In this document: positions 4,569 to 59,593 of the stretch, piece after piece
Layout: each line of letters starts with the position of its first letter
Position numbering within the stretch: the stretch's first letter is position 1
Origin: Candidatus Doudnabacteria bacterium RIFCSPHIGHO2_12_FULL_48_16
GTDB lineage: Bacteria > Patescibacteriota > Doudnabacteria > UBA920 > O2-02-FULL-48-8
Reading direction: 5' to 3'
DNA: 64,000 nucleotides
NCBI GenBank assembly: GCA_001780035.1
Contig: MFEY01000007.1
Coordinates: forward strand, 6,212-70,211
Notes under the pieces: model-generated
The model's database searches: none
Told to the model about the DNA's origin: nothing
Seen by the model: the letters and a program-made list of their open reading frames with translations, nothing else
Program-made: the position numbers and the translations under genes

Positions 4569-4617
4569 AAACTCACCCCCTCTCTAGCCACATTATAATA
4601 TAAACTTAAGCAAACGG

Positions 4618-5377: not shown

Positions 5378-5406
5378 AAACCCTGCCAAATGCAGGGATT
5401 TTTATA
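5378..5406 (-). terminator. Rho-independent terminator downstream of mreB
   Basis: On the minus strand: ccctgc-attt-ggcaggg, followed by tttttattttt. Confidence 0.5.
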
Positions 5407-5491
5407 TGAATGTTTATAACCTGTGAGCAACTTTGGGATAAACTGTGCTCAAATTTTATTTCCAGTAGTTTTACGCGCTCTGCGCCGAGCG

Positions 5492-29078: not shown

Positions 29079-29083
29079 AATTT

Positions 29084-29293
29084 TTATAGTGGCAACGGAC
29101 AGCTTTGATTGAGGCAATTTTGCTTCTGAACCCTTTGCTCGGCTTTCCATTTCAAATAATCGTTCATCGTTTTTCTGGAAGTATAATTATTTGGCCAATA
29201 TCCTTCCGTAACCTTAACAATCGGGATTTGGAACCAACCATACAAGCCCACGGCCGTCAGAATCAATATCGTGCTAATAACTTTATTAGTCAT
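29084..29293 (-). CDS. Small membrane protein
   Basis: 69 aa with one transmembrane helix (VISTILILTAVGLYGWF). Confidence 0.3.
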   Translation of the reverse strand: MTNKVISTILILTAVGLYGWFQIPIVKVTEGYWPNNYTSRKTMNDYLKWKAEQRVQKQNCLNQSCPLPL

Positions 29294-32043: not shown

Positions 32044-32563
32044 TGGGAATAAGATTAAAAGTCAAAAGAATTTTGTTAATGTCGGATTTGGATCCCCGGA
32101 TAACGTAAATATGCCGGTCCGTTTTGGCTAAGACGACACCCTCCACACGGCCACCGCCCAAATCATTGACGATACCGGTGGCTTTCACGCCGTCAACCAT
32201 GACTGGGCTTTCCGAGATAACGTTCAACGGTTTGCGGATCGTTCGTTCGGCATTCGGTTTATAAACGCTGACTTCGATTCCCTGTCCGCTCTCCGGTGCA
32301 AATATGGCGCTGACCTCATCGGCTTCCACGGCCCAGGAGGCCGGATAGCGCAGCGAAAAACCCAATTTGGGGTTTTCGTAAGTGTGCCAGGAAACAAAGG
32401 TTTGTTCGGCGACCTGGCTGCTCTGAGCTTCGTCGCTGACTTTGATGTATCCGATCAATGCGATAGCCACGAATAATACATAGGCAATGGCCCAAATCAG
32501 CCAGCGGTTATGATGGACTTTAATTTTATGCAAGCGGTAGATTGGGTGTTTTTGTTTGGCCAT
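32033..32563 (-). CDS. Membrane-anchored extracytoplasmic protein, distantly related to the paralog family
   Basis: An N-terminal transmembrane segment, then …VSWHTYENPKLGFSLRYPASW…. Confidence 0.4.
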   Translation of the reverse strand: MAKQKHPIYRLHKIKVHHNRWLIWAIAYVLFVAIALIGYIKVSDEAQSSQVAEQTFVSWHTYENPKLGFSLRYPASWAVEADEVSAIFAPESGQGIEVSVYKPNAERTIRKPLNVISESPVMVDGVKATGIVNDLGGGRVEGVVLAKTDRHIYVIRGSKSDINKILLTFNLIPIED

Positions 32564-37816: not shown

Positions 37817-38257
37817 TTAGCTGATCTTGCCGCCGGCCTTTTCGATTTTATCCTTCGCCGCGGCGGACACTAATACTTTTTCAAATGACAGGGACTTTTT
37901 AAGTTCGCCCTGATTGAGGATTTTGATCTTACCGTTGGCATCTTTAACCAAGCCCTTGTTGAACAAGGTTTTAGGATTAACCATTTCGCCGGCCTGAAAT
38001 TTCTGTTCCAGCAAATCCAGACTGATCGGTATGGCTTTGGGAATTCGGCTGGTAAAGCCGCGGCGCTTGGGAATCTGCCGGTGCAACGGCATGCGGCCGC
38101 CTTCAAAACCGACCGGAATTGAGGCGCCCGAACGGGCCAGCTGGCCCTTGGCGCCGCGGCCCGAAAAGGTGCCGTGGCCGGAGCCAACACCACGTCCGAC
38201 AGTTTTGCGGCGCTTGGTTGATCCCTTGTATGGCCTGAGTTCAGAGAGTTTCAGCAT
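37817..38257 (-). CDS. rplO: 50S ribosomal protein L15
   Basis: MLKLSELRPYKGSTKRRKTVGRGVGSGHGTFSGRG. It directly follows rpsE with no L30 gene between them. Confidence 0.9.
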   Translation of the reverse strand: MLKLSELRPYKGSTKRRKTVGRGVGSGHGTFSGRGAKGQLARSGASIPVGFEGGRMPLHRQIPKRRGFTSRIPKAIPISLDLLEQKFQAGEMVNPKTLFNKGLVKDANGKIKILNQGELKKSLSFEKVLVSAAAKDKIEKAGGKIS

Positions 38258-38258
38258 A

Positions 38259-38762
38259 TTATTTCTTAAAATTCAGCATGGTGTCTTTGGACTTCATTTT
38301 AGACAAAGCCAGATAGGTCGCCATGACATTATTTACCTTGTTGGAAGAACCGATCATTTTCGACAGCACATTCTTGACGCCGACCAAGTCGAGCACCTGG
38401 CGGATCGAGCCGCCGGCGATAATTCCCGTGCCCGGCCGGGCCGGTTTGAGAAAGACCACCGAGGATTTATACTTCAGCTTCATTTCGTGCGGAATGGTAT
38501 CGTTGACCAGGTTGATGCTCACCAGAGTTTTCTTGGCCGCGTTAACCGCCTTGTTCACAGCTTCCGAAACATCGGCGCCTTTGCGCAGACCGATGCCCAC
38601 CCGCCCTTTTTTGTCCCCGATCACCACTAGGGCGCGGAAACGCATGCGCTTGCCGCCAGCGACCACGCGCGTCACGCGCTTGATCTCGACGATCTTTTGC
38701 TCAAATTCTCTGGGGCCCTGTTCGCCTTGGCGGCCGCGACCGCGGCCTCTGTTAAATGCCAT
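38259..38762 (-). CDS. rpsE: 30S ribosomal protein S5
   Basis: …RVTRVVAGGKRMRFRALVVIGDKKGRVGIG…. Confidence 0.9.
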   Translation of the reverse strand: MAFNRGRGRGRQGEQGPREFEQKIVEIKRVTRVVAGGKRMRFRALVVIGDKKGRVGIGLRKGADVSEAVNKAVNAAKKTLVSINLVNDTIPHEMKLKYKSSVVFLKPARPGTGIIAGGSIRQVLDLVGVKNVLSKMIGSSNKVNNVMATYLALSKMKSKDTMLNFKK

Positions 38763-38781
38763 AAAGATTCTTTCTTCTCTT

Positions 38782-38945
38782 TCTTCTCCCCTTGCGGGAG
38801 AAGATGTCAGCCTTAGAGATTTTATTAAAGCCGGCTGACAGATGAGGGGTATCTAAGGGTTAGTAGGCTCCTAAATCACCCTCACCTGTCACTCAACGAA
38901 GTTGAGTGACATCCTCTCCCGTCAAGGGAGAGGATAAAACTGAAA
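38782..38945. repeat. SR-C structured repeat, copy 1, upstream of rpsE
   Basis: Modules: TCTTCTCCC-cttgc-GGGAGAAGA, tgtcagc…gctgacagatg, gaggggtatctaag…, aaatcaccctcacctgtc…, ATCCTCTCCC-gtcaa-GGGAGAGGAT. Confidence 0.6.
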
Positions 38946-38952
38946 GTTACGT

Positions 38953-39294
38953 TTAAAACTCCAATCCCGCAGCGCGAGCGCTGTCAGCTAATTCTTTTAC
39001 CCGGCCGTGATACTGGTATCCGCCGCGGTCAAACACAACTTTTTTAATCCCGGCCGCCTGGGCTTTCTGGGCGGCGAGCTTGCCGACCTCAACCGAGGCC
39101 TGCTTCTTGCTGTTTTTACCCTTAAGTTCCGAACTGGCGGCGCTGGCCATGGTCTTACCGTTTTCATCATCGATGAATTGCACGTAAATCTGGCTTAACG
39201 ATCGGAAAACATTCATGCGCGGAACTTGCGCCGTTCCTTTGACTTTCGAGCGAATCCGGTTATGTCTAAATTTTCTCTGGGTTCTTTTGTTCAT
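38953..39294 (-). CDS. rplR: 50S ribosomal protein L18
   Basis: …RPRLSVFRSLKHIYAQ…-type L18. 113 aa. Confidence 0.9.
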
Positions 39295-39314
39295 AGAATT
39301 ATAATTTCTAGATT

Positions 39315-39869
39315 CTATTTTCCGCCTCCGACGGCCTTAACGACTTTGCCCGCTTTACGCCGAATAACTTCATCGGAATATTTTATGCCTTTGCCCTTGT
39401 AAGGCTCCGGTTCCCGCTGGGAGCGCACAACAGCCGCAAACTGGCCGACCAACTGGCGGTCAATGCCGGCTACGGTCATAACGTTCTTTTCCACTTTGAC
39501 GTCCAGACCATCCGGGATTTCCATTTCAATCGGGTGCGAATAACCAAGATTCATGACCAATTTTTTTCCGGTCACCGCGGCTTTGTAACCGACCCCGTTG
39601 ATTTCCAAGGTTTTGCTAAACCCGGCGGTCACACCAGAGACCATATTGTTAATCAGCGCGCGCGATAATCCCCACAACGCCCGTTCGCTCTTTACCTTCT
39701 CGTTTTTTACGCTGACGACCAGATCCTGGCCATTCTGAGCAACAGTAACTTTGGGATGAACATGCAGCGTTAATTCGCCCTTGGGTCCTTTGACCTTCAG
39801 AGTCTGATCCTGAATCTCGGCGGTCACACCGGATGGCAGGGTTACTGGTTTTTTACCGATTCTGCTCAT
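39315..39869 (-). CDS. rplF: 50S ribosomal protein L6
   Basis: [33 protein letters not shown]…. Confidence 0.9.
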
Positions 39870-39887
39870 TTGATTCTTTCTTCTTGT

Positions 39888-40036
39888 TCTTCTCCCCTTG
39901 CGGGAGAAGATGTCAGCGTTATTTGGGTTATTATTAGTCGCTGACAGATGAGGGGTATCTAAGCTTACTTAGCTCTTAAATCACCCTCACCTGTCCCGAC
40001 TTTGTCGGGACATCCTCTCCCGTTGAGGGAGAGGAT
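39888..40036. repeat. SR-C structured repeat, copy 2, upstream of rplF
   Basis: About 96% identical over roughly 150 nt to copy 3 (40469-40617). Same module order, with an inner hairpin gtcccgac-tttgtc-gggac. Confidence 0.65.
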
Positions 40037-40052
40037 TAAGCTGAAAATTACA

Positions 40053-40451
40053 TTACCAAATTTGGCAGACAATTTCGCCGCCGACTTTGGCCTTGCGGGC
40101 TTCCTTGTCCGTCATTAATCCTTTCGAAGTCGAAACTACCGTGGTGCCCATGCTGCCCATGACACGCGGCAAATTTTCCCGGGAAGCATAAATACGCTGT
40201 CCCGGCTTGCTGACCCGTTTGATGCCGGAAATCGTCGGTTGGCCGGAGGCATCGTATTTGAGCTGCAGCATCAAATTTTTGAAGCCGCCGTCTTCCGACA
40301 CTTCCACTTTCTTAATCCAGCCTTCTGTTTCCAGAACTTTGGCCAGGCTGAGCTTGAAATTGGAGTGCGGCAAAGAAACTTCGCTCTTGCGGGCGAGCAA
40401 TGCATTGCGAATGCGGGTTAGCATATCTGAAATTGTGTCGTTCATCGTCAT
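40053..40451 (-). CDS. rpsH: 30S ribosomal protein S8
   Basis: MTMNDTISDMLTRIRNALLARK…. Confidence 0.9.
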   Translation of the reverse strand: MTMNDTISDMLTRIRNALLARKSEVSLPHSNFKLSLAKVLETEGWIKKVEVSEDGGFKNLMLQLKYDASGQPTISGIKRVSKPGQRIYASRENLPRVMGSMGTTVVSTSKGLMTDKEARKAKVGGEIVCQIW

Positions 40452-40468
40452 AAGGTTTTTTCTTATTT

Positions 40469-40617
40469 TCTTCTCCCCTTGCGGGAGAAGATGTCAGCGT
40501 TATTTGGGTTATTATTAGTCGCTGACAGATGAGGGGTATCTAAGCTTACTTAGCTCTTAAATCACCCTCACCTGTCCCGACTTTGTCGGGACATCCTCTC
40601 CCGTTGAGGGAGAGGAT
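40469..40617. repeat. SR-C structured repeat, copy 3, upstream of rpsH
   Basis: Near-identical to copy 2. It ends …caaggggagaagaaaataagaaaaaacctt just before the ATG. Confidence 0.65.
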
Positions 40618-40633
40618 TAAGCTGAAAATTACA

Positions 40634-40828
40634 TTACCAGGAAGATTTAACTATACCGGGGATTTCACCATTGGAAGCCAGTTCTCGGAAACAAATGCGG
40701 CAGATATCAAAATCGCGCATATAACCATGCTTGCGGCCACAGCGCCAGCAGCGGCGCACGACCCGGGTCGAATATTTCGCCTGGGTGCGGGATTTAAGAG
40801 ATTTTAAGTATTGAGCCTTGGTTGCCAT
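40634..40828 (-). CDS. rpsZ: 30S ribosomal protein S14, type Z (zinc-binding)
   Basis: 64 aa with CWRCGRKHGYMRDFDICRICFRE, a CxxC…CxxC zinc motif. Confidence 0.9.
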   Translation of the reverse strand: MATKAQYLKSLKSRTQAKYSTRVVRRCWRCGRKHGYMRDFDICRICFRELASNGEIPGIVKSSW

Positions 40829-40833
40829 AGTTG

Positions 40834-41370
40834 TTATTTGGAAAACGGGAACCCTAATGATTTAAGAAGCGCTAAAGCCTGTTTGTCATCGTCAGTCGAA
40901 GTTTGGATGTTAACTTCCAGGCCGAAAGTGTATTCAAAGTGTTCCCGCGTGGTCTCCGGAAATACAATCTGCTCCCGCAGACCAATGTTGTAGTTACCAT
41001 GGCCGTCAAATTTCTTGGGATCCAGGCCGCGGAAATCGCGAACGCGAGGAAGAGCAACCTTCACCAGTTTTTCCAAAAAATCATACATTCGATTGCCGCG
41101 CATGGTGACGACCAGACCAACTACCTGCCCCTCGCGGATTTTAAACCCGGCGATGGATTTCTTGGCCAGGGTTTTGACCGGAGTTTGGCCGGTAATGCGC
41201 TTGACGTCTTCCACAATCGCCTCGAGCATTTTGGCATCTTTCAATGTTTTACCGACGCCGACATTGACCACAACTTTCTGGATTTTCGGTACAGCCATAA
41301 CATTGCCCAAATGCAAATCCTGCATCAGGCTCTTGGTTACTTTTTCTTTGTATAAAGTCTTGAAATTCAT
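40834..41370 (-). CDS. rplE: 50S ribosomal protein L5
   Basis: MNFKTLYKEKVTKSLMQDLHLGNVMAVPKIQKVVVNVGVG…. Confidence 0.9.
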   Translation of the reverse strand: MNFKTLYKEKVTKSLMQDLHLGNVMAVPKIQKVVVNVGVGKTLKDAKMLEAIVEDVKRITGQTPVKTLAKKSIAGFKIREGQVVGLVVTMRGNRMYDFLEKLVKVALPRVRDFRGLDPKKFDGHGNYNIGLREQIVFPETTREHFEYTFGLEVNIQTSTDDDKQALALLKSLGFPFSK

Positions 41371-41476
41371 CCCGTTAGAAATAATAATTAGTTAATCGAC
41401 AATCTTTGTTATAGCCAGCCCGTTGAATATTATGCTCACTATTGGTTAAATATGCAAAATTTCTAACGGGATTCAT
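41371..41476 (-). mobile_element. IR-A element, copy 3, between rplX and rplE
   Basis: TAA-TGAAT-CCCGTTAGAAAT…TTAACTAATTATT-ATTTCTAACGGG-ATGAAT: a perfect 6-bp direct repeat ATGAAT flanks a 14-bp inverted repeat. Removing the element and one repeat gives TAATGAAT, the common TAATG stop-start overlap. Confidence 0.6.
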
Positions 41477-41781
41477 TAGATTACCTTTCCACACTTTTTA
41501 CATTTGCGAAAATTGCCGCGATCGGAAAGTTCGCGTCCGACCCGGGTCGGCTTGCCGCAGAGGGGGCAAATTAACTGAGTTTTGGAAGCATCGATCGCCC
41601 CAGGAAGTTCCAAGCGCTGTCCTTTTTCGCCCTGCCGTTTCGGCCGAGAAAATCGGACCCGGATGTGCAGCCCTTCGACGACCAGCTTGCCGGTTTTGGG
41701 AAACACGTCCAAAACCTTGCCGGTCTTACCCCGTTCTTTGCCTGCCAAAATTTTAACTGTATCGCCTTTCTTTATTCTCAT
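41476..41781 (-). CDS. rplX: 50S ribosomal protein L24
   Basis: MRIKKGDTVKILAGKERGKTGKVL… is the KOW motif. Confidence 0.9.
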   Translation of the reverse strand: MRIKKGDTVKILAGKERGKTGKVLDVFPKTGKLVVEGLHIRVRFSRPKRQGEKGQRLELPGAIDASKTQLICPLCGKPTRVGRELSDRGNFRKCKKCGKVI

Positions 41782-41794
41782 ATAATTCTTAATT

Positions 41795-41880
41795 TACGTC
41801 TACGAACTTACGAAATTTTTACGAAAATACGAAGTGAGCTAACCCTTTTCGTATGTTCGTATTCTGTTCGTAATTTCGTA
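41795..41880. repeat. Long imperfect hairpin built from iterated TACGAA (x4) and TTCGTA (x4) units, between rplN and rplX
   Basis: ctacgaacttacgaaatttttacgaaaatacgaag-tgagctaaccctt-ttcgtatgttcgtattctgttcgtaatttcgtag. The same TTCGTAAT unit is the recJ heptamer repeat. Confidence 0.55.
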
Positions 41881-41884
41881 GCCA

Positions 41885-42256
41885 TTACACTACTTCTTCG
41901 GCTAATGAAATAATTTTAGTGAACCCCAGATCGCGCAACTCCCTCGGCATCGGGCCAAAAATACGGGTGCCCCGCGGTTCCGGATCATCTTTGTTAACCA
42001 AAACTGCGGCGTTGTCATCAAATCTGATGTAAGATCCGTCAGAGCGGCGCACTTCCTTGCGGGTGCGGACGATCACGGCGTAAACCTTATCGCCCTTCTT
42101 GACTTGGCCTTTCGGACTGGCGATTTTGACGGAAGCGGAGATAACATCACCGATCGTCGCGAAACGGCGCTTGTTTTTCCCGTTCACGCTAAAAGCCGCG
42201 ATCTCGCGAGCGCCGGTATTATCTGCAACTTTTAAACGTGTTCTTAACTGTATCAT
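41885..42256 (-). CDS. rplN: 50S ribosomal protein L14
   Basis: [19 protein letters not shown]…. Confidence 0.9.
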
Positions 42257-42315
42257 AATTTATTAGGTTGTTGTCCGCCGGAGGCGGATCCGCCTTTGGC
42301 GGAAATCATAAAATA

Positions 42316-42588
42316 TTAAATCTTGCTGACAACTTTCCAATTAACGGTTTTACTGTAAGGCCGGGATTCTTCGATTATGACCTTATCGCCGATTTTCAAT
42401 CCTTCCAAATCGTTATGGGAAGGGTATTTCTTTGAAACCGTGTAGCGCTTGTGATACTTCGGGTGCACTTTCACGGAATCGACTTCCACGATGACCGTCT
42501 TGGTCATTTTGTCGGAAATAACCCTGCCGGTTAATTTTCTGTGAATCTTATTCACCCCGTTAGATTTTACTGAATTATTATCTGTCAT
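42316..42588 (-). CDS. rpsQ: 30S ribosomal protein S17, with about 10 extra N-terminal residues encoded by an IR-A2 element
   Basis: MTDNNSVKSNGVN-KIHRKLTGRVISDKMTKTVIV… The S17 core starts at KIHRKLTGRVISDK. An alternative GTG at 42553-42555 directly follows the inverted-repeat arm. Confidence 0.85.
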   Translation of the reverse strand: MTDNNSVKSNGVNKIHRKLTGRVISDKMTKTVIVEVDSVKVHPKYHKRYTVSKKYPSHNDLEGLKIGDKVIIEESRPYSKTVNWKVVSKI

Positions 42589-42637
42589 AATTTTCTGCTT
42601 ATCCCATTGATTTTTCTAAAAATCTAACGGGGTCAAT
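42555..42637 (-). mobile_element. IR-A2 element, copy 1, between rpmC and rpsQ
   Basis: Minus orientation: TAA-TATTGA-CCCCGTTAGATTTTT…TTATGACAGATAATAATTCAGT-AAAATCTAACGGGG-TGAAT. The interior is homologous to the gap copy. Confidence 0.55.
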
Positions 42638-42638
42638 A

Positions 42639-42821
42639 TTATTTGGAATTAATGAGAGTTAAAATGCGGGCAATGTCTTTCTTGATATTCTGGAGGGTGT
42701 GGCTGTTCTTAACTTCCTTGGAATGAATCTTGAAAGTCAGATCACGAACCTGTTCGCGCAGGCTCGCCAGCTGGCGGCCCAGTTCCTGTTCACCCATGGC
42801 TTGCAATTCTTTCATTTTCAT
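42639..42821 (-). CDS. rpmC: 50S ribosomal protein L29
   Basis: MKMKELQAMGEQELGRQLASLREQVRDLTFK…. Confidence 0.9.
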   Translation of the reverse strand: MKMKELQAMGEQELGRQLASLREQVRDLTFKIHSKEVKNSHTLQNIKKDIARILTLINSK

Positions 42822-42822
42822 C

Positions 42823-42924
42823 CCGTTAAAAATTAATAACTAAATTAATCATATCTGTGATCGATAATCCTGCTAATATACTTTGCCCATCAACGAACGT
42901 CTCAAAATTTCTAACGGGATTCAT
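42823..42924 (-). mobile_element. IR-A element, copy 4, between rplP and rpmC
   Basis: TAA-ttt-ATGAAT-CCCGTTAGAAAT…TTTAGTTATTAATT-TTTAACGGG-ATGAAA. Confidence 0.55.
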
Positions 42925-42927
42925 AAA

Positions 42928-43341
42928 TTAAGCCTGATCCCTTAAGACAAACCGAGTCTTGATCGGCAGTTTGTGCGAGGCCAAGCGCATCGCTTCCGCA
43001 GCCTGGTCGGCGGTTACCCCGTCCATTTCAAACATAATCCGGCCCTTCTGGACGACGGCGACGAAATGGTCAACAGCTCCTTTGCCGGAACCCATCGGGG
43101 ATTCATTACCGTGAGAAGTGATCGGCTTATCTGGAAAAATGCGGATCCAAATCTTGCCGCCGCGCTGGACATATCGGGTCATGGCTCGGCGCGCTGATTC
43201 AATCTGGCGCGAAGTCACCCAGCTGTTTTCCAGGGCTTTGAGGCCATAGCTGCCAAAGGCAACATAATTGCCGGACATGGCCTTGCCGGAAGACTTTCCG
43301 CGGTGGTGCTTTCGATGCTTGACCTTTTTAGGTATTAACAT
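42928..43341 (-). CDS. rplP: 50S ribosomal protein L16
   Basis: [16 protein letters not shown]…. Confidence 0.9.
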
Positions 43342-43453
43342 AGTAGTTTAACTTAAAATCAATAAATATTCTTAAATATTTCCGGTTCTCGCCCCGTACC
43401 GGAGCGAAGCGACTGGTGCGGGGTGTTTTACTTTCTTGGGAATCAACATAAAA

Positions 43454-44131
43454 TTATACGCCTTTCAGTCTAAGTTTATTACCGGTAAACACTTCACCTT
43501 TGTTAATCCAAACCTTGACTCCGATCGTGCCGTATGTGGTAAAGGCGGTGACGCGGGCAAAATCAATGTTGGCGCGCAGGGTGTGCAAGGGCAGTTTGCC
43601 TTTAAACAACCGTTCGCTGCGGGCGATTTCTGCGCCGCCCAACCGGCCGGCGCATTCGATTTTGACGCCCAAAGCCCCGGATTCCATAACCTGTTCAATG
43701 GCGCCTTTCATGGCGCGGCGAAAGGCAATCCGTTTTTCAATCTGATCCGCGATATTCTGCGCGACCACTTGAGACTGCAGATTGACGTCTTTGACTTCTT
43801 CGATGTTCAACTTCAAATCCAGCTTTTTTAAATTCAAGTGGGCCAAAATTTTCTTTTTTAAATCCTCAACGCCGCCCCCGCCCTTGCCGATAATCATTCC
43901 GGGCTTGGTGGTTTTGACCGTGACGCTCACGGTGGGACCGAAACGTTCGATATCGATCCGAACTAGGCCGCATTTTTTCAGTTGCAGCATCAAAAACGCG
44001 CGGATGCGGGTATCCTGTTCCAGCTTGGCGGCAAAACCGGTCTTGGAAAGCCATTTGGATTTCCAAGTGTCGGTAATGTTCATTCTTAAACTGTTGGCGT
44101 TGACTTTCTGTCCCATAAAATTTACCCCCAC
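43454..44131 (-). CDS. rpsC: 30S ribosomal protein S3
   Basis: MGQKVNANSLRMNITDTWKSKW… with the KH and S3-C domains. Confidence 0.9.
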   Translation of the reverse strand: MGVNFMGQKVNANSLRMNITDTWKSKWLSKTGFAAKLEQDTRIRAFLMLQLKKCGLVRIDIERFGPTVSVTVKTTKPGMIIGKGGGGVEDLKKKILAHLNLKKLDLKLNIEEVKDVNLQSQVVAQNIADQIEKRIAFRRAMKGAIEQVMESGALGVKIECAGRLGGAEIARSERLFKGKLPLHTLRANIDFARVTAFTTYGTIGVKVWINKGEVFTGNKLRLKGV

Positions 44132-44135
44132 ACCA

Positions 44136-44252
44136 AACGAGCTTCTGTTTCGGCTACGCCGAAACAGTTTACTCGCAGATTAGTTCGCTCGTTGATTATT
44201 GGTATTCTAATTATCATAAATTTATTATAACTGATTAAGCTCGTTCTGGTGT
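44136..44252. repeat. IR-flanked element between rpsC and rplV
   Basis: A 19-bp inverted repeat acccccacaccaaacgagc / gctcgttctggtgtgggggt encloses the hairpin ctgtttcgg-cta-cgccgaaacag. Confidence 0.5.
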
Positions 44253-44258
44253 GGGGGT

Positions 44259-44843
44259 TTATTCTCCAGATTTACGGTTAAATAATCGGCGCTTCAAACT
44301 GATAAAACTATTCTTGCGTTTTTCGCTCGAGCGCGGGGCCAATTTCGGCCCTTGCTGCTTGGTCGGTTCAACTTCGCCGGCTTCCCGTTCAACTTCGTTG
44401 AATGATGCTCGCCCCTTCGGGACGGCCGGTTCCGTTGATTTAGGGCGGAGTGTGAAAATAGATCGCTTGCTGACTGATTTCTTCGGGGCTCGTTCGCCCA
44501 ACACAAGATTGATGTGGCTGGTACGCTTGCGTTCAACGAAAGCCCGGCCCTGGGCACGCGGCGCGTATCGTTTGAAAACCGGTCCGCCGTCGATGGTTAC
44601 GGATTTAATATATAAATTATCCCTATTCAGATTAAAATTGTGGATGGCGTTGGCGATAGCGGAGTTGATAACCTTGGTTAAAGGCAGGGCGGCATTTTTG
44701 GAAGAAAAACGCAGCTGTTCCAACGCCACGTCCACTGAATTCGTGCGCACCAAATCCGCCACCAACCGCAGCTTGCGGGGGCTGACATGGATATAGCGGG
44801 CAAATGCCTTCACTTCCTTGATTTTAGACTTTTCTTGTGCCAT
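44259..44843 (-). CDS. rplV: 50S ribosomal protein L22, with a long C-terminal extension
   Basis: The L22 core is MAQEKSKIKEVKAFARYIHVSPRKLRLV…, followed by an extra Lys/Pro/Glu-rich tail of about 80 aa. Confidence 0.85.
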   Translation of the reverse strand: MAQEKSKIKEVKAFARYIHVSPRKLRLVADLVRTNSVDVALEQLRFSSKNAALPLTKVINSAIANAIHNFNLNRDNLYIKSVTIDGGPVFKRYAPRAQGRAFVERKRTSHINLVLGERAPKKSVSKRSIFTLRPKSTEPAVPKGRASFNEVEREAGEVEPTKQQGPKLAPRSSEKRKNSFISLKRRLFNRKSGE

Positions 44844-44848
44844 AAAAG

Positions 44849-45217
44849 TTATTTTTTAACTCCTTCAGCCGGGGCTTTGGATGCTTCTTGGGCCCGCTTT
44901 TCGGCTTCGGCCGCAGCCATGGCTTCGTCTTTGGCCATTTTGCCGCCGTGTCTGGTAAATTTGCGGGTGGGGGAAAATTCGCCGAGCTTGTGGCCAACCA
45001 TATTTTCCGAGCAGAGAACTGAGATAAAAATCTTCCCGTTGTGCACGAGGAAAGTCATGCCGACCATTTCTGGAAAAATCGTGGAGTCGCGAGACCAGGT
45101 TTTGATCTCAACTTTAAGTTTTCCGCCGGAGGCGGATCCGCCGCTGGCGGAAACTTTCTGGATTTTGGCCAGCAGTTTCGCGTCGATAAAGGGTCCTTTT
45201 TTTAACGATCTTGACAT
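44849..45217 (-). CDS. rpsS: 30S ribosomal protein S19, with a C-terminal extension
   Basis: [21 protein letters not shown]…, followed by an Ala/Lys/Glu-rich tail. Confidence 0.85.
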
Positions 45218-45218
45218 A

Positions 45219-45764
45219 TTATTTAGTGAATTTAAAACTGGAAAGAATCAGCTTTATCTCGTCCAGATTATATTTCTGGGTCAAAATATAATAAATTGTA
45301 CCGTTATGTTTAACTAAAACTTCGTATGAGGAAACGCTCACACTGCCGTCTTCATTCGTTCCGGGATACTTTTCAACAAATGCATATCCATTTTCGCCGG
45401 CAAAAGTAATTGCGGATTCAACCGGTACGCTGCCACCCACTGCCTTCTTTAACTGCTGTCTGACGGTTTCAAAAGGCTTGGTTTCTATTCGGACAGCTAG
45501 ATAAACTGTCATATTGTCAGCATCAGATTTACTTTGCAAAACAGTGTTTTCAAAGTCAATTCCGTCACTACCGTTCAGTAAATATTTGTCAGCGGGATAT
45601 TCAAATTCAAAACCATACTTAGTATTTGTGTAGGTTTTCCAGGTCGCGGGGTCAGTATCAGTTTTAGTAATTGTTTGATTCTGGGCAGGCTGAACAGCGG
45701 CTTGCTGGTTGCAGGCGGCGGCGATGAACAACATTGAAATTGTCAGAAATAAAAGTTTCTTCAT
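45219..45764 (-). CDS. Lipoprotein of the W-TY-N-KYGFEF-YP family, paralog 5, inserted between rpsS and rplB
   Basis: Lipobox LFIAAAC, motif [21 protein letters not shown], and a C-terminus …[10 protein letters not shown]. Confidence 0.55.
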
Positions 45765-45765
45765 A

Positions 45766-46599
45766 TTACCTTCGTCTCTTAACGATAAATTTATTCGAGG
45801 ATCTCTTCTTGTTGCGGGTCTTCACGCCCAAGGCATGCTTGCCCCAGGGAGTCTTCGGGTATTTCAAACCAATTGGGTTGTGGCCTTCGCCGCCGCCATG
45901 TGGATGGTCAATCGGGTTCATGGCTTTGCCGCGCACCGATGGGCGGATGCCCCGGTGGCGGTTGCGCCCCGCTTTGCCGATTCTAACATACATCCAGTCC
46001 GTATTGGAAACCTGGCCGACGGTGGCCAGCGAATTGCCCGGAATTTTGCGGATTTCACCGGACGGCAGCTTCAATGTCGAATAATCGGGATCCTGGGATT
46101 GCACGATTGCATAAGACCCGGCGGCGCGGACCATCTGTCCCCCGCCCTGGCCGAGAATTTCCACATCGTGAACATTGGCGCCGATCGGAATATTTCGGAG
46201 CATCATCCGGTTGCCCGGCTTAATTTCGGTCCGATCCGCAGTCAGTAAAATCTCGCCGACTTTGACGCCATCCGGAGCCAAAATATACCGTTTTTCACCG
46301 TCAAGGTAAGACAATCGGGTAATAAAGGCGCTGCGTCCCGGATCGTATTCCAGAGTTTCCACCTTGGCCGGAATATTCATTTTGTCGCGGCGGCTAAAGT
46401 CCAAAGTTCGAACTTTCAGTTTATGACCTCCGCCCTGATGGCGAGTGGTAATCTTGCCCTGGTTATTGCGGCCGGCGGTGCGGCCAAACGACTTGATCGC
46501 CGATTTCATGGGCCGCGTGTTCTTGGTCAAAACCGAATAATCTGTAACCGAATGAATGCGGCGGCCGGCGGAAGTTGGTTTATAAATCTTAATTGCCAT
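45766..46599 (-). CDS. rplB: 50S ribosomal protein L2
   Basis: 277 aa (…GGGHKLKVRTLDF…, …GRNNQGKITTRHQGGG…). Confidence 0.9.
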   Translation of the reverse strand: MAIKIYKPTSAGRRIHSVTDYSVLTKNTRPMKSAIKSFGRTAGRNNQGKITTRHQGGGHKLKVRTLDFSRRDKMNIPAKVETLEYDPGRSAFITRLSYLDGEKRYILAPDGVKVGEILLTADRTEIKPGNRMMLRNIPIGANVHDVEILGQGGGQMVRAAGSYAIVQSQDPDYSTLKLPSGEIRKIPGNSLATVGQVSNTDWMYVRIGKAGRNRHRGIRPSVRGKAMNPIDHPHGGGEGHNPIGLKYPKTPWGKHALGVKTRNKKRSSNKFIVKRRR

Positions 46600-46602
46600 A
46601 AA

Positions 46603-47010
46603 TTAAATCCCTTCGGCCAAACTGGAAATTTTTTCCCCGGTTTTTAATGTCACGATCGCTTTCTTCCAGTCCTGGGTCTTGCCGGTGCTGTGGCCGTGGC
46701 GGCGTTTTTTGCCGGTCACGCTGATCATATTGACCGAAACCACATGAACATCGTAAACCTGTTCGACCGCTTTTTTAACCTCAATCTTGTTTGTATTTTT
46801 GGCGACGCGGAAGACATAGCGGCCGGATTGTGAAAATAAATTGCTCTTCTCGGACAAATGGTAATTGCGCAAAACCCGGTGGGCCCGGCCGGTGTTTTCT
46901 TTTAACGCCTGGTGAGTCTTGGTCTCCACGGGCTCCTTGACCATGTCCAAAACATTCTCGTCTTTCTGAGCGGGCTTCACAGCGTCTTTTTTTCGTCCAA
47001 ATAATGCCAT
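46603..47010 (-). CDS. rplW: 50S ribosomal protein L23, with an N-terminal extension
   Basis: The C-terminal part is …YVFRVAKNTNKIEVKKAVEQVYDVHVVSVNMI…. 135 aa. Confidence 0.85.
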   Translation of the reverse strand: MALFGRKKDAVKPAQKDENVLDMVKEPVETKTHQALKENTGRAHRVLRNYHLSEKSNLFSQSGRYVFRVAKNTNKIEVKKAVEQVYDVHVVSVNMISVTGKKRRHGHSTGKTQDWKKAIVTLKTGEKISSLAEGI

Positions 47011-47011
47011 A

Positions 47012-47650
47012 TTACTTTAGGTAAGTTTTTTCAATTATCGGCAGGGCATCCGCCGTTACGATCGCATCGGCTCGCATTAAATCCAAAACATTCAAATGAG
47101 TCGCGGGTAAAATTTTAACATTGGGCAAGTTGCGGGCGGCGTTTTCCAGTTCGGCGTTATGAGTGGCAATGATCAAAATAAATTTTTTGCCCAATCCGGC
47201 TTTGGCCGCGATAGTGTTAAGCTGTTTGGCCAATTCCCCGGTTTTCGCCGTCTGGCCGATTTTATCCACGACAATCAACTTGCTCTCCTTAAACTTGTCA
47301 GTCAAAACCGTAAACAGCGCTTTGCGCCAGGCGGAGCGGTTCATTTTGAGCGACCAGTCGCGATTATTGCGCGGTCCAAACGTAATGCCGCCGTGTCGCC
47401 ACAGTGGCGAACGAACCGAACCGGCGCGCGCCCGACCAGTGCCTTTTTGCTTCCACGGCTTTTTGCCGCTGCCGGCAACCTCGCCCATCATTTTGGTGTG
47501 GGCCCAAGGGCCGCGAACGTTGTTGCGCTGCGTTCTGACAGCCGCGTGAATTAAATTGGCGTCGAGTTTTTCAATGCCAAAAATCTTCGGATTCAAAGTG
47601 AGTTCCGAAATTTTCTCGCCGCTTTGGTTGTAGACTGAGGCCTTAGTCAT
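47012..47650 (-). CDS. rplD: 50S ribosomal protein L4
   Basis: MTKASVYNQSGEKISELTL…. The start is trimmed to the Met whose ATG overlaps the upstream stop as ATGACTAA. Confidence 0.85.
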   Translation of the reverse strand: MTKASVYNQSGEKISELTLNPKIFGIEKLDANLIHAAVRTQRNNVRGPWAHTKMMGEVAGSGKKPWKQKGTGRARAGSVRSPLWRHGGITFGPRNNRDWSLKMNRSAWRKALFTVLTDKFKESKLIVVDKIGQTAKTGELAKQLNTIAAKAGLGKKFILIIATHNAELENAARNLPNVKILPATHLNVLDLMRADAIVTADALPIIEKTYLK

Positions 47651-48242
47651 AGTTCTTGATAATGTTTGGATAATCGGTAAACACTCCGTCAATTCCCAAT
47701 GCTTTCAGCTTTTGAAATTGAGTGGGATTGTTGACGGTCCAGACAAATACTTTTTTACCCAAGCGCCGGAAGCGCTGAATCAACAGTTTCTTTGCCAGGA
47801 AAGTTTTTGGATGAATGGAATAAAGTTTGAGAACTTTATCAAGCTTCGGGATAAAGGGAATCAGAAACCAGTTGGCTTTTCCGATCACTAGTCCCAGCTG
47901 GACGCTTTCGTCCAAAGCCCTAATTTTCTGCAGTATCTTGGGATACTTAGAGGAAATCAGAACACTGGATGAAAAATTTTTAATGGCGCTTAATACTTCC
48001 CGCTCAAGCCCCGCTTGTTTCAGTTCCAGATTGACCGGAACTGTGATTACGCCCAAGGCTTCAGCCAAAGTCGTAAGATTCAATTTAGAAGAGTTATTGT
48101 GGCTTAAAACTATTTGGCCCGCTTTATCACGGCGCAAATCTGTTTCAACCATATCGACGCCCAACTCCACCGCCTTTTGAAAAGAACCGATCGTGTTTTC
48201 CTTCGCAAGCCCTGCTGCTCCCCGGTGCCCGATGATCAGCAT
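47643..48242 (-). CDS. Glycerophosphodiester phosphodiesterase family protein, inserted between rplC and rplD
   Basis: MLIIGHRGAAGLAKENTIGSFQKAVELGVDMVETDLRRDKAGQIVLSHN is the GDPD signature (HRG…E.D). Confidence 0.8.
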   Translation of the reverse strand: MLIIGHRGAAGLAKENTIGSFQKAVELGVDMVETDLRRDKAGQIVLSHNNSSKLNLTTLAEALGVITVPVNLELKQAGLEREVLSAIKNFSSSVLISSKYPKILQKIRALDESVQLGLVIGKANWFLIPFIPKLDKVLKLYSIHPKTFLAKKLLIQRFRRLGKKVFVWTVNNPTQFQKLKALGIDGVFTDYPNIIKNYD

Positions 48243-48243
48243 G

Positions 48244-48834
48244 CTAGGATGCCTGAATCTTCACTATACCACCGTTGGCTCCCGGCACCGCCCCTTTCAC
48301 GGCGATCAGATTGCGCTTTACATCCACATCGATGACTTCGAGATTGGTAACGGTCCTAACCCCGGCCATATGGCCTGCCATACGCAATCCTTTGCGGACA
48401 TGCTGCGGGAACCGGCCGCCGATCGCACCGACGGCGCGGGGGTGGTCATGGCCGTGGGACGCCGGGGCGCCTTTGAAACCGTGGCGTTTAATCGGACCGG
48501 CAAAGCCGCGGCCTTTCATTTCGGCCGTGACTTTAACTTTGTCGCCGATGACAAAAGTATCAACTTTAATCTCCTGCCCTTTGGTAAAAATATCCTTGTC
48601 GGAAGTTCGAAATTCAGCCAAGGTTTTGAACGCCCCATGGCCGGCTTCGGCCTTGGTCGGATGCTTCTTTTTGCCAAAACCCACCTGCACCGCGGTATAT
48701 TTGTCCTTATCTGCAGTTTTGACCTGGACGACCATCACCGGACCGGCCTTCAACACGGTCACCGGCACGACTTTGCCGTCCTTGGTGAACATCTGCGACA
48801 TATTCAGTTTTTCCGCGATGATGAATTTGGCCAT
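48244..48834 (-). CDS. rplC: 50S ribosomal protein L3
   Basis: MAKFIIAEKLNMSQMFTKDGKVVPVTVLKAGP…. Confidence 0.9.
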   Translation of the reverse strand: MAKFIIAEKLNMSQMFTKDGKVVPVTVLKAGPVMVVQVKTADKDKYTAVQVGFGKKKHPTKAEAGHGAFKTLAEFRTSDKDIFTKGQEIKVDTFVIGDKVKVTAEMKGRGFAGPIKRHGFKGAPASHGHDHPRAVGAIGGRFPQHVRKGLRMAGHMAGVRTVTNLEVIDVDVKRNLIAVKGAVPGANGGIVKIQAS

Positions 48835-49039
48835 TTGATTCTCTTCAAATTGGTGCCACCCTCTCCCTCTGGGAGAGGGGCTGGGGGTGAGGGTTTACTT
48901 TCTTAAACAAAAACCATTCAGATCCCAGAGTAATTCAGAAACCTGAATGGTTCTTCTTGAGGATCGCCGTTGTCCATCTTGTCCGCCGAAGTTTTAGCGT
49001 AGGCGGAATCGGACCTGACACAATCTAAATATTTAATTT

Positions 49040-49363
49040 TTACATTTTAATTTCGATGTCCACGCCAGCCGGAAGGTTCATATTGGAGAGGGCATCGATG
49101 GTTTTGGGGGTTGGACTGCCGATATCAATCAATCGCTTATGAATGCGCATTTCAAACTGTTCGCGGGAGTTCTTATGGACAAAGGTCGAACGGTTAACCG
49201 TATACTTGGTCTTTTCGGTTGGAAGCGGAACCGGACCAATGACCGCCGCCCCGGAACGCTTGGCGGTTTCCACAATCTGGCGGGCTGATTGGTCAATGAG
49301 CTTATGGTCATAAGCTCTGATCTTGATCCTGATTCTTCCTGATTCGGTCTTATCTTGCGGCAT
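49040..49363 (-). CDS. rpsJ: 30S ribosomal protein S10
   Basis: …[39 protein letters not shown]…. Confidence 0.9.
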
Positions 49364-49540
49364 TCGATTGAGTTGGTAAGTTAACTGCGGGTTAATAAAT
49401 TTAGTTGGGTAACTTCAGTATTTTACACAAATTGAGGGTATTTGTCAAACCCGACGCTTACGGGTCGGGTCCCCGACAAAACGTCGGGGCAGAAGGCAGA
49501 TTAAAGGACTAGCCGGGAATTGGCTAGTCCTTTCTTGTCA

Positions 49541-50728: not shown

Positions 50729-50996
50729 TTGATTAGATTCCTTGTGGCGTTTAAGTATCAAGGTCTCCTGATGCTAGGCGAAGTTCCCCATGCCCGGGGT
50801 GCTTAGCCAAGTTCAGAAGCCAACTTAAAAAACCGCCTTAAATTAATGGTTTTTACCCGCTTAAACCCTAAGGATTTTACACAGGCTTCCAAATTATAAA
50901 GCAAACATGTCGTTTTGGCAAGCCCTGTGGATTACTTTACTAACAATTCCCAAATTGATAGTATTTAGCCGAAGGAGGAGCCTCTAAAGGCGCATT

Positions 50997-51173
50997 ATGA
51001 CCAAAACCACCCGAACCCGGGCCCTGCTGGCCATTGCGGCGCTGTGCTTTAGCACGGCAACCGGCCAACACGCGATCGCGGTCGGTATTCGTTTTTCAAT
51101 CACTTTAGCCCACTCAGCGTTCGGCACGGACGCGGCCGCCGACCTGTTCCGGTTCATCCACTAGGAGTCCTCA
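50997..51173 (+). CDS. Hypothetical small protein in the second high-GC island (signal-peptide-like N-terminus)
   Basis: MTKTTRTRALLAIAALCFSTATGQHAIAV… at about 65% GC. A weak call. Confidence 0.2.
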
Positions 51174-51358
51174 TGAGCCTGACAACCCGAGCGCGCAGCC
51201 TTGAGAGCGCGATCGATCTGATCCGAGCGACCCGGCAAGCCCAGCCAAAGCGCCGAATCGAAGTCACGGTGGATGACGAAAGCCGGATCAGCCCCTTGCT
51301 TCGGGCCGGGGCCGATTTCGTCTGCGTCGCGCCACCGGCCGGAAAGGCAACCCACTAA
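51173..51358 (+). CDS. Hypothetical small protein in the second high-GC island
   Basis: 61 aa (MSLTTRARSLESAIDLIRATRQAQPKRRIEVTVDDESRISPLLRAGADFVCVAPPAGKATH). High GC, and on the strand opposite to the operon. Confidence 0.2.
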   Translation: MSLTTRARSLESAIDLIRATRQAQPKRRIEVTVDDESRISPLLRAGADFVCVAPPAGKATH

Positions 51359-51538
51359 TGAACTGGCACTGGCGAGAGTGGGTTGCAAACAATCGAAACG
51401 GCGAACGCGTGTTGCCTAAAGCAACACCCGCGAGCCGTTTTTCATTTGGGACGGTTGCAACTTACGCGACAACATATAAATTCATAAAAATAAAAACACC
51501 TCCTCGCAAATGCAAGAAAGCGTTTCTAAAAATCTATT

Positions 51539-57510: not shown

Positions 57511-57918
57511 TTATTCAGTCACCGTAATCTTACCGAAAGAGCTGGAATTCAGATGGTCATGAAACTTCCAGCTGCCGACTTTTCCGAAAGTGAATGACCA
57601 AGTTTCGCCCGGAGCAATGGCGCGTTTGGAATCAAACTCCGGATAATCGGTGTGCGTCGGATGCGGCGCGGAAGCCGGCCAATGAGGCTTGCTGTCAGTG
57701 TTTACAAATTTAACCAAGTCGCCTTTTTTAATGGTCAGGGTGGCGGGATTAAATCCAGCGGCCATATTAATTTCGTATGTTTTGGGAGCCGCGGGTGCTG
57801 CTTGGTTTTGGTTGTTGTCTTGGCTGCTTGGGGGATTTGGATTGGCCGCCGGTTGGGATTTATTGCAGGCCGCGGCCAGAAGCGCCAGGCCCAGAAACAA
57901 AATTGCAAGTTTTCGCAT
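57511..57918 (-). CDS. Cupredoxin-like lipoprotein (paralog of 4618-5082)
   Basis: Lipobox LLAAAC, a Pro/Gln/Asn-rich linker, then WPASAPHPTHTDYPEFD…FHDHL. Confidence 0.5.
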   Translation of the reverse strand: MRKLAILFLGLALLAAACNKSQPAANPNPPSSQDNNQNQAAPAAPKTYEINMAAGFNPATLTIKKGDLVKFVNTDSKPHWPASAPHPTHTDYPEFDSKRAIAPGETWSFTFGKVGSWKFHDHLNSSSFGKITVTE

Positions 57919-58338: not shown

Positions 58339-59233
58339 GAGCTTCGCTGTTAACCAAGGTTAGTTTAGTAATTCCTATCAATAAAATCAAGCCGCCGATG
58401 ATCTGCATGCTCTCCAGCGTGGCACCCAAAAATATCCAGTTCACGATCACGGCCGCAACCGGAAAGGCCAGTTCGCAAAGCGTAGCCACGGCCGCCTTGG
58501 TCGAGCGCAGACCGTAATAGTAGAGCAAAAGCGAGGCAAATCCCGCAATAATCGCGGTTATAAACACAAACAGCCAATCCTTGCGCGTGGTCAAATTAAT
58601 TTGGGACAGCGTGTGGTAGTAAACGTTCATGAAAAATAGAAAGACCAACGCCGACAAAAACCGCAGGGATGTCATCATCTGGAAGCTTACTTTATTGAGC
58701 ACGTAGCGGCCAAAAACTGTGGAACCGCCCCAGAAAAACGCCGCGCCGAGCGCCAGCAGAACGCCAAGCGTGTCGGAATTCCACGTCCAGCCAGCCGGTT
58801 TGAAATCCGGAAACGTCACCAGGTAGGCGCCAAAAACAGCCACAACCGTCCATGTCCAGAAATCTTTCGATAATTTCTCACCCAACACCCATACTGCCAG
58901 TAGTATGGCGATCAGCGGCTGCAGCTTTTGCAGCAAAATTGCCACCGTGGGATTAAGATAGTGGAAGCTCTGAGTAAACAGCACTGTGGCCAAGGCCGAG
59001 CCGCCAAAACCGATAAAAATCACGGACAACCACTCGCGGCCGGATAAATTTTTTAACTCCCTCAGGCGCGGTAAGAAAATCGGCAGGACGAAAAACGCGA
59101 TCAGGATATGCTCCATGAGCACAATTACGGTCGAAGACAGCTGACCGCTTAAATATTTGCGAAACGGCGCGTCCACTGCCCAAAGCACCGCAGCCAAAGC
59201 CACCATCCAGGGACCAAAATTTTTATTAGTCAT
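58313..59233 (-). CDS. EamA/DMT-family transporter
   Basis: Ten transmembrane helices with duplicated EamA halves. The start is trimmed to MTNKNFGPW…; the upstream ORF extension is read-through of SR-C copy 4. Confidence 0.7.
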
Positions 59234-59243
59234 TTCAGATCTT

Positions 59244-59385
59244 TCTTCTCCCCTTGCGGGAGAAGATGCCCGCAGGGCAGATGAGGGGTAAAAAAAATAA
59301 TAGCCCTCGTTCGGGGCATAGCGAGAAATCACCCTCTCCTGTCCGGTCAGTTGACCGGACATCCTCTCCCGTCGAGGGAGAGGAT
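59244..59385. repeat. SR-C structured repeat, copy 4, upstream of the DMT transporter
   Basis: TCTTCTCCCCTTGCGGGAGAAGA…AAATCACCCTCTCCTGTCCGGTCAGTTGACCGGACATCCTCTCCCGTCGAGGGAGAGGAT: the same module order as copies 1-3, with the middle modules diverged. Confidence 0.55.
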
Positions 59386-59593
59386 TAAGCAGAAAGAGTC
59401 TTTCGCCTTCTTTCATCCAGACTATACTGTCGCCTCCGGAATCAAACCGGATCGTGCTCTTTCAAGCTCGCGGGGTATACCGCCGGTGGGGAATTCTCTG
59501 CCCGCCGAAGCCTCGGCGAAGGAGGGTCACCCCGCCCTGAAGGTTAATTGCTTTGATTATAGCTTATACAAAATTGGTAGGCAAACTATTCGC

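Follow-up and report, generated by a model that had tools for sequence, protein, structure and literature searches.

The gene order rplC-rplD-rplW-rplB-rpsS serves as a near-invariant marker of bacterial genomes. In the 64,000-nucleotide (nt) stretch analysed here (the window; contig MFEY01000007.1 of Candidatus Doudnabacteria bacterium RIFCSPHIGHO2_12_FULL_48_16, a member of the Candidate Phyla Radiation, CPR), two non-ribosomal genes stand inside this order: a gene of the glycerophosphodiester phosphodiesterase (GDPD) family between rplC and rplD, and a predicted lipoprotein gene between rplB and rpsS. What are these genes, how stably do they sit in the S10 operon, and does their position carry a meaning? 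The reading judged most probable, at about 0.7, is that they are two extra cistrons of the operon, co-transcribed and reinitiation-coupled with the genes from rplC to rplV, the GDPD gene being an old member and the lipoprotein gene an occupant of a variable slot.

Architecture of the S10 block

The genes of the block follow one another on the minus strand in the order rpsG, fusA, tuf, rpsJ, rplC, GDPD (open reading frame (ORF) 199), rplD, rplW, rplB, lipoprotein (ORF-181), rpsS, rplV, rpsC and on to rplO and secY (Table 1). The rplC and GDPD genes are separated by a single nucleotide (TAG-c-ATG); the GDPD gene overlaps rplD by 8 nt (ATGACTAA); and the lipoprotein gene is joined to rplB on one side and to rpsS on the other by the same arrangement, TAA-t-ATG, again with 1-nt spacers. 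All gaps from rplC to rplV fall between -8 and +5 nt, and most other junctions of the cluster measure 50-190 nt (rplO and secY are 4 nt apart). A consensus scan found no promoter-like or terminator-like site beside either insert. Both genes therefore show what characterises membership of one transcription unit: the same strand, minimal spacing (+1, -8, +1 and +1 nt at the four junctions) and no site in between.

The original prediction of two non-ribosomal genes in the S10 operon was right in its coordinates, both genes being co-directional and flush with their neighbours; the overlap of the rplD ATG with the GDPD stop codon TAA that it described is read here as 8 nt long. The translational coupling it proposed fits a start/stop overlap or a 1-nt spacing. 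On the basis of this architecture, the S10 operon of this Doudnabacteria lineage would carry two extra cistrons, transcribed with rplC through rplV and translated through termination-reinitiation coupling, and the run rplC-GDPD-rplD-rplW-rplB-lipoprotein-rpsS-rplV probably forms one coupled translational unit downstream of the attenuator-like RNA described below. Almost none of the ribosomal-protein genes at 37817-49363 has a Shine-Dalgarno-like motif within 20 nt upstream, which makes reinitiation a plausible route to translation start. Several of the long spacers in the same interval finish in purine-rich tracts (GAGAAGAAnAAGAAGAAAGAA) directly before the start codon.

The inserts might instead be chimeric joins in a metagenome-assembled genome: the window stems from a metagenome bin, and a second assembly (L002) differs from it by a 23-nt indel and by about 70 nt in length at an alignment break in the tuf region. 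There is virtually no chance that this is the explanation. Independent Rifle samples yielded at least 24 contigs that encode the identical GDPD protein, and in 23 of these its neighbours are the same; one contig (L001) is 100% identical to the window across 12.6 kb; and 11 divergent relatives from other studies likewise have the order rplC-GDPD-rplD. Misassembly, which the original prediction had named among the findings that would refute it, is ruled out because the exact protein and its neighbours recur on independent contigs. In marker-gene pipelines and synteny-based binning checks, the inserts should not be flagged as chimeras.

How often such insertions occur was gauged from 80 CPR-like loci (L008-L087; L4 identity 34-53%), which are matches listed in metagenome contigs and not close relatives; a single-protein L4 scan of genome contigs gave 5 loci. 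Among the CPR-like matches listed, spacers of at least 250 nt were found in 2/72 loci between rplC and rplD, 1/71 between rplD and rplW, 0/61 between rplW and rplB, and 5/47 between rplB and rpsS. The first position is therefore rarely interrupted, whereas the last is a soft spot in CPR bacteria (about 10% of the loci listed); the rarity that had been claimed for both insertions holds for the GDPD gene and fails for the lipoprotein gene. The contents of the interrupting spacers are mutually unrelated: a 23S-rRNA-IVP protein (between rplC and rplD in L017), an opposite-strand histidine kinase (L071), a TrpR-like gene and unknown ORFs. The rpsJ-rplC spacer is also long in the CPR-like loci listed (median 213 nt; at least 250 nt in 18 of 51), and several loci carry ORFs there or between rplB and rpsS.

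Insertions in Gammaproteobacteria and Bacilli have been described mainly between operons (PMC8046335). Full-text literature searches found no published account of a GDPD gene in a ribosomal operon or of S10 operon structure in CPR bacteria. The closest known parallel is the spc operon, which holds secY, adk, map and infA, non-ribosomal genes placed at the distal end and almost universal. The likeness lies in non-ribosomal genes stably co-transcribed inside a ribosomal-protein operon; the difference is that here an enzyme gene lies between those of L3 and L4 and a lipoprotein gene between those of L2 and S19, within the proximal S10 core and in one CPR clade only. The inserts thus extend a known kind, and what is new is the clade-wide depth, the lipoprotein slot and the attenuator-like RNA. 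Since a class-level CPR lineage has kept an enzyme between L3 and L4 even as the sequence of the enzyme drifted to about 40% identity, the very core of this operon can gain a stable member.

The GDPD gene between rplC and rplD

The comparison of S10 structure across CPR relatives shows that the position of the GDPD gene is clade-wide. Its context was looked up for homologues at 62, 62, 61, 56, 48, 45, 42, 40 and 39% identity, and the loci L004 (41% identity) and L100 were found by other means. All 12 carriers (the window, L004, L088, L089, L091, L093, L094, the P0094 contig, L095, L097, L098 and L100) have the gene between rplC and rplD, at GDPD identities of 39-100%, which strongly supports the synteny on which the original prediction depended. 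Among the other CPR-like S10 loci listed it occurs in 0/80, the sister lineage L008 is without it, and the next-best homologue beyond the clade (34% identity) has an unrelated archaeal neighbourhood. Most lineages have kept the junctions tight, adjacent genes overlapping by 8-11 nt or lying 1-5 nt apart; the GDPD-rplD overlap is 8 nt in L089, as in the window, and 11 nt in L004. L091 is the exception, with a 150-nt element bearing terminal inverted repeats between rplC and the GDPD gene.

Only one Doudnabacteria locus, L003, has the canonical order without a GDPD gene, its rplC-rplD spacer being 8 nt long. In a neighbour-joining tree of 10-11 ribosomal proteins, the carriers and L003 form one clade (100% bootstrap), and L003 is nested inside the carriers (94-100% support), which indicates that it lost the gene secondarily. 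On this view, an ancestor of the clade would have acquired the GDPD gene at the rplC-rplD junction, and its descendants would have kept it there apart from a single clean secondary loss; the gene can serve as a synapomorphy-like marker for this Doudnabacteria clade. Its sequence changes at a far higher rate than those of the neighbouring genes (37-70% identity, compared with 76-89% for them).

The product looks like an intact metal-dependent glycerophosphodiesterase, as predicted from its residues and its model. It matches the Pfam GDPD family (PF03009) with E=1.8e-29 and 104 bits, against a cut-off of 23.6. Across 92 homologues, the most distant at about 37% identity, residues H6, R7, G8, E33, D35, H48 and K75 do not vary, and position E73 is E, H or D. 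H6, R7, E33, D35, H48 and E73 align with the H-R, E-x-D, H and E-x-K positions of the Thermoanaerobacter tengcongensis enzyme 2pz0; their roles in catalysis and metal binding (a His pair with Arg, and an E-D-E metal site) are presumably those given in the 2pz0 literature. In its AlphaFold model, which has a confidence score (pLDDT) of 97.1, the protein forms a complete (beta/alpha)8 TIM barrel of eight strand/helix units, and Foldseek gives it TM-scores of 0.88-0.90 to 2pz0, 4oec and 1o1z (E about 1e-16). No signal peptide was found in the protein, which is predicted to be cytosolic. With its position kept clade-wide, its catalytic residues invariant and its barrel complete in the model, the GDPD is an old, long-selected operon member across the clade.

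The window protein has the same fold as UgpQ (Escherichia coli), 2pz0, TM1621 (1o1z; Thermotoga maritima) and 4oec (Thermococcus kodakarensis), and like them is without a signal peptide. It differs in its genomic setting, among S10 operon genes instead of beside ugp/glp transport genes, and in its length of 199 amino acids (aa), where small GDPDs have about 225-250 aa. It is shorter because the GDPD-I insertion, a small lid after strand 2, is cut to about 10 residues. In GDPD structures this insertion helps form the substrate pocket. The deletion spans 24-26 aa, with the same boundaries in every short-form relative (197-203 aa); the long form of some relatives (220-228 aa) retains GDPD-I.

Most likely, the enzyme acts on scavenged glycerophosphodiesters or on lyso-lipid head groups and sets free sn-glycerol-3-phosphate together with an alcohol. 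CPR organisms likely rely on a host for lipids, and the GDPD would probably feed glycerol-3-phosphate from scavenged head groups to such an organism. If this role in lipid salvage holds, synthesis of the enzyme would track ribosome synthesis, and hence growth. The insert therefore offers a concrete case in which to ask what benefit lies in tying an enzyme to ribosome synthesis.

A place between L3 and L4 that is kept by every carrier could also mean that a GDPD-fold protein was recruited to translation, as a ribosome-associated factor or as a phosphodiesterase acting on RNA- or protein-linked glycerophosphate, and not for lipid salvage. The clade proteins are basic, as ribosomal proteins are: their median isoelectric point (pI) is 9.28 against 5.85 in out-clade homologues, and that of the window protein is 9.96. 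The trimmed lid would admit larger substrates to the active site, and the protein is the equivalog of neither UgpQ nor GlpQ. However, it is a bare TIM barrel with no RNA-binding domain or extension; basicity is not universal in the clade, where pI ranges from 6.0 to 10.7; L003 lost the gene with no visible replacement in the operon; and the top structure and sequence matches are ordinary GDPDs. A translation-linked role, for which position and basic pI speak, is accordingly a low-probability reading with a slim chance of being correct, and lipid salvage is preferred.

The lipoprotein slot between rplB and rpsS

The original prediction treated the two inserts alike. Both are indeed real cistrons; their histories differ, the GDPD gene being old and the lipoprotein gene recent. 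The slot product of the window has an N-terminal signal peptide ending in a lipobox Cys and is a predicted lipoprotein. It matches Pfam PsbP_2 (PF18933; PsbP-Mog1-LpqN fold family) with E=6.7e-8 and 33.2 bits against a curated cut-off of 27, over profile positions 6-183 of 184. The structural model has a pLDDT of only 59 and is for this reason counted as weak support; its top fold matches are PsbP, CyanoP and LpqN (TM-score 0.45-0.52), together with DcrB, all at 12-18% sequence identity. With the PsbP/CyanoP/Mog1p-fold lipoproteins, such as LpqN of Mycobacterium tuberculosis and DcrB of Salmonella, the window protein thus shares the Pfam hit, the best fold matches and a lipoprotein-type envelope nature.

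The local expansion of this W.TY.N.KYGFEF.YP family, already remarked upon, is borne out by five more copies in the window (Table 1). The GC content of the slot gene is 0.396 and that of four of the five paralogues is 0.34-0.40, against a window average of 0.474. A recent copy of one of these paralogues into the slot was considered and rejected: the slot gene has no DNA-level similarity to the five other PsbP_2 genes, and protein identity is at most 29%.

The content of the slot varies across the clade. L089 is the nearest relative (89% ribosomal-protein identity; sister at 100% bootstrap), and its slot is empty, with rplB and rpsS 3 nt apart; it is empty in six other clade members as well. 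The window lipoprotein is therefore the current occupant, which arrived after the split from this nearest sampled relative. Depending on the relative, the number of lipoprotein genes in the slot is 0, 1 or 3, and in one case a remnant of 19 codons is left. In L004 the slot gene encodes a 154-aa lipoprotein whose mature domain is unlike that of the window, and the P0094 contig has a 278-aa ORF. L100 has three slot genes, encoding a 213-aa protein (family unknown), a PsbP_2-like protein of 195 aa that is homologous to that of the window and a 151-aa DUF5818 protein, and a fourth lipoprotein gene between the tuf terminator and the rpsJ promoter. In this near-complete Doudnabacteria genome (also L099), the four genes, at 129-677, 4358-4999, 5001-5588 and 5607-6062, have a near-identical signal-peptide module.

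Traces of gain and loss are visible at the slot itself. The third slot gene of L100 starts with MSRSLKK, a duplication of the first seven codons of rpsS, which looks like an insertion footprint. In L091, the sister of L100 (100% bootstrap), the slot contains a 19-codon ORF that is identical at 38 of 43 nt to the start of the first slot gene of L100; this match documents the loss of a slot gene.

The common denominator of the slot genes is their 5' end. The module MKK..AAACN(Q/K)QAAVQP, comprising signal peptide, lipobox Cys and linker, has 72-81% DNA identity over about 70-90 nt when compared with the L100 slot genes, and the rest is mostly unalignable. The same signal-peptide module is found in P0122, P0123, P0125, P0126 and the L100 slot genes; Pfam LPAM_1 matches one L100 paralogue weakly. 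The AACNQQ lipobox common to the window and L004 was initially taken as evidence of homology and then downgraded, as other lipoproteins of the window have similar lipoboxes (LLAAACNK at 57511-57918); only 27 aa align. What does support homology of the slot genes is the longer AAACN(Q/K)QAAVQP module, together with L100 and the remnant in L091.

These features resemble the Vlp/Vsa proteins of Mycoplasma, variable surface lipoproteins with conserved 5' signal-peptide regions. In both cases, paralogues have conserved 5' ends and divergent mature parts, and copy number differs between close relatives. The differences are threefold: neither an invertible promoter nor a homopolymer tract was seen that could act as a phase-variation switch; expression would be by read-through of the ribosomal-protein operon; and the mature domains are of different folds (PsbP_2, DUF5818, unknown). 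In the proposed mechanism, the rplB-rpsS junction would be a variable slot for surface lipoprotein genes that use the transcription of the operon, with contents turning over by gain, loss and probably recombination at the shared 5' signal-peptide module. Such a slot hints at how genome-reduced, promoter-poor episymbionts might express fast-evolving surface proteins.

Expression of the block, competing readings and other features

The spacer between rpsJ and rplC, upstream of the block, contains a structured RNA composed of a P1 hairpin, a long P2 hairpin and a U-run. It is present in the window and in all 10 clade relatives whose spacers were examined. Of its 31 pairs, 10 show compensatory changes, and pairing is present in 95% of the cells; covariation scores 0.35, compared with 0.19 for shuffled alignments (0/500 shuffles reach it) and at most 0.10 with the partners slid. 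The covariance model matches only the loci of this clade, and no Rfam match was found for the RNA or the operon region at E<=1. The U-run ends 15-70 nt before the rplC ATG, and at most loci this leaves no room for a promoter, so transcription of the essential downstream genes must come from read-through, as it would with an attenuator. A conserved, covarying structure with a terminator hairpin and U-run upstream of the genes has the form of a leader or attenuator, and the RNA is a candidate new ribosomal-protein leader/attenuator restricted to this Doudnabacteria clade.

In the S10 operon leader of E. coli, transcription attenuation is mediated by L4. The Doudnabacteria element is similar in that two hairpins, the second of them terminator-like and trailed by a U-run, precede genes including rplD; it differs in lying after rpsJ and not before it, and in being without an Rfam match. 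By analogy, L4 is a candidate regulator of this RNA.

Several observations weigh against the proposed operon membership and metabolic role. First, co-transcription and coupling are read from the architecture. Second, a terminator-like hairpin with a U-run is conserved between rpsJ and rplC, and the output of a block lying downstream of it may be attenuated rather than maximal. Third, the codon adaptation index (CAI) of both inserts is 0.60, lower than that of every ribosomal or elongation-factor gene (0.624-0.776) and lower than the median of other genes (0.649). The original suggestion that both genes are expressed at ribosomal-protein levels is not borne out by the CAI and the upstream hairpin, and it had been an inference from the start. 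Fourth, the GDPD is not an equivalog of UgpQ (60.8 vs 264 bits; NCBIfam NF006989) or GlpQ (22.1 vs 254; NF008354) and is without most of the GDPD-I insertion, and a plain metabolic role leaves the basic pI shift of the clade unexplained.

Finally, the GDPD tree agrees only in part with that of the ribosomal proteins. The GDPDs of L093 and L094 (70% identical) pair at 100% bootstrap, and the ribosomal proteins of these loci are not sisters; short-form GDPDs, whose deletion boundaries are identical, turn up in separate parts of the ribosomal-protein tree. This disagreement means that inheritance of the GDPD gene was not purely vertical, and it suggests that alleles were swapped in place, with the conserved genes on either side as a possible route. 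The other possibility is that the deletions arose in parallel.

Both genes could also be neutral passengers, persisting because excision is hard, in which case their position would be functionally meaningless. The cluster is peppered with other insertions, including repeats resembling miniature inverted-repeat transposable elements (MITEs) in many spacers and one repeat in frame in rpsS; unrelated genes occupy the same two junctions in other CPR lineages; neither insert is codon-adapted; and the lipoprotein gene is of low GC content and missing from the sister genome L089. Against this, L003 shows that clean excision of the GDPD gene is possible, yet 12 of 13 sampled lineages keep it despite divergence to about 40% identity, with an invariant active site and, in most lineages, tight spacing. 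As for the slot, genes of one kind that share a conserved 5' module turn up there repeatedly, which favours a selected site of expression. Neutral hitch-hiking is thus plausible for the lipoprotein and much less so for the GDPD; as an account of both genes it is unlikely, although it deserves to be taken seriously. Two extra, selected cistrons remain the preferred reading.

A bolder reading would make the S10 core a two-part expression platform. One part would be a minimal, basic, lid-less GDPD-fold enzyme produced in fixed ratio with L3 and L4 under the post-rpsJ attenuator, whose target would be either the translation apparatus or a host-derived lipid that limits growth; the other would be a recombination-driven rplB-rpsS cassette that displays changing surface lipoproteins at ribosomal-protein transcript levels for host interaction. 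This reading is speculative and rather improbable.

Table 1. Features of the S10 block and of the rest of the window. Positions are those of the 64-kb window unless a relative is named; (-) denotes the minus strand.
Feature	Position	Strand	Evidence
Promoter-like site upstream of rpsJ, TTGACA-17-TAAAAT, 11/12 matches, predicted	49420..49448	(-)	Consensus scan
rpsJ (S10)	49040..49363	(-)	Pfam Ribosomal_S10
Structured RNA, rpsJ-rplC spacer	48902..49028	(-)	Covariation, covariance model
Same RNA in relatives	L003 5300-5393, L004 4614-4705, L088 2294-2396, L089 4308-4401, L091 4145-4240, L093 4298-4393, L094 4290-4379, L097 4300-4398, L098 1390-1491		
rplC (L3)	48244..48834	(-)	Pfam
GDPD family gene	47643..48242	(-)	Pfam, alignment to 2pz0, residue invariance, model
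GDPD stop / rplD start overlap	47643..47650	(-)	Sequence
rplD (L4), 212 aa from ATG at 47650	47012..47650	(-)	Pfam
rplW (L23)	46603..47010	(-)	Pfam
rplB (L2)	45766..46599	(-)	Pfam
Predicted lipoprotein, 181 aa, rplB-rpsS slot	45219..45764	(-)	Pfam, weak model
Conserved 5' module of slot lipoprotein genes	45675..45764	(-)	DNA comparison
rpsS (S19), with in-frame 41-nt palindromic repeat	44849..45217	(-)	Pfam
rplV (L22), final gene of the tightly packed block	44259..44843	(-)	Pfam
Further W.TY.N.KYGFEF.YP family copies	18322-18927, 22033-22839, 23093-23818, 23907-24752, 32033-32563		
41-nt palindromic repeat TTTCCGCCnnnGGCGGATCCGCCnnnGGCGGAAA	45118-45158 (in rpsS), 42270-42310 (rpsQ-rplN spacer), 28643-28683 (in ORF 28173-29150)		
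About 175-nt repeat copies	38763-38952, 39870-40052, 40452-40633; partial 59233-59395, adjoining the FMN riboswitch		
Flavin mononucleotide (FMN) riboswitch, 87.7 bits	59401-59548	(-)	Rfam RF00050

No tRNA was found in the window. The gap between fusA and tuf (50729-51538) is 810 nt long with a raised GC content of 0.58; neither tRNAs nor Rfam families were found in it. Relatives carry small ORFs on the opposite strand at this place, and conservation in the sister genome is limited to about 160 nt upstream of tuf.

Repeats are found both in spacers and in coding sequences. Three spacers in the spc part of the cluster, rplR-rpsE, rpsH-rplF and rpsN-rpsH, are filled by copies of a highly structured, roughly 175-nt repeat (fold energy about -82 kcal/mol), two of which are 100% identical over 172 nt. 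The 41-nt palindrome is in frame in rpsS, where it adds 10 residues missing from the S19 of all relatives, and in ORF 28173-29150, where it encodes 11. Insertion into coding sequences is also a trait of the palindromic elements of Rickettsia, which this repeat resembles. A further element, bounded by the terminal inverted repeats ACCCC(C/T)ACACCAGAACGAG...CTCGTTTGGTGTG(G/A)GGGT, lies at 44117-44258 of the window (between rplV and rpsC) and at about 4851-5000 of L091 (between rplC and the GDPD gene); its presence in different ribosomal-operon spacers of different genomes suggests a mobile, MITE-like element. Other palindromic elements (CCCGTTAGAAAT...ATTTCTAACGGG) are found in the rplP-rpmC and rplX-rplE spacers and near 14950 and 36324.

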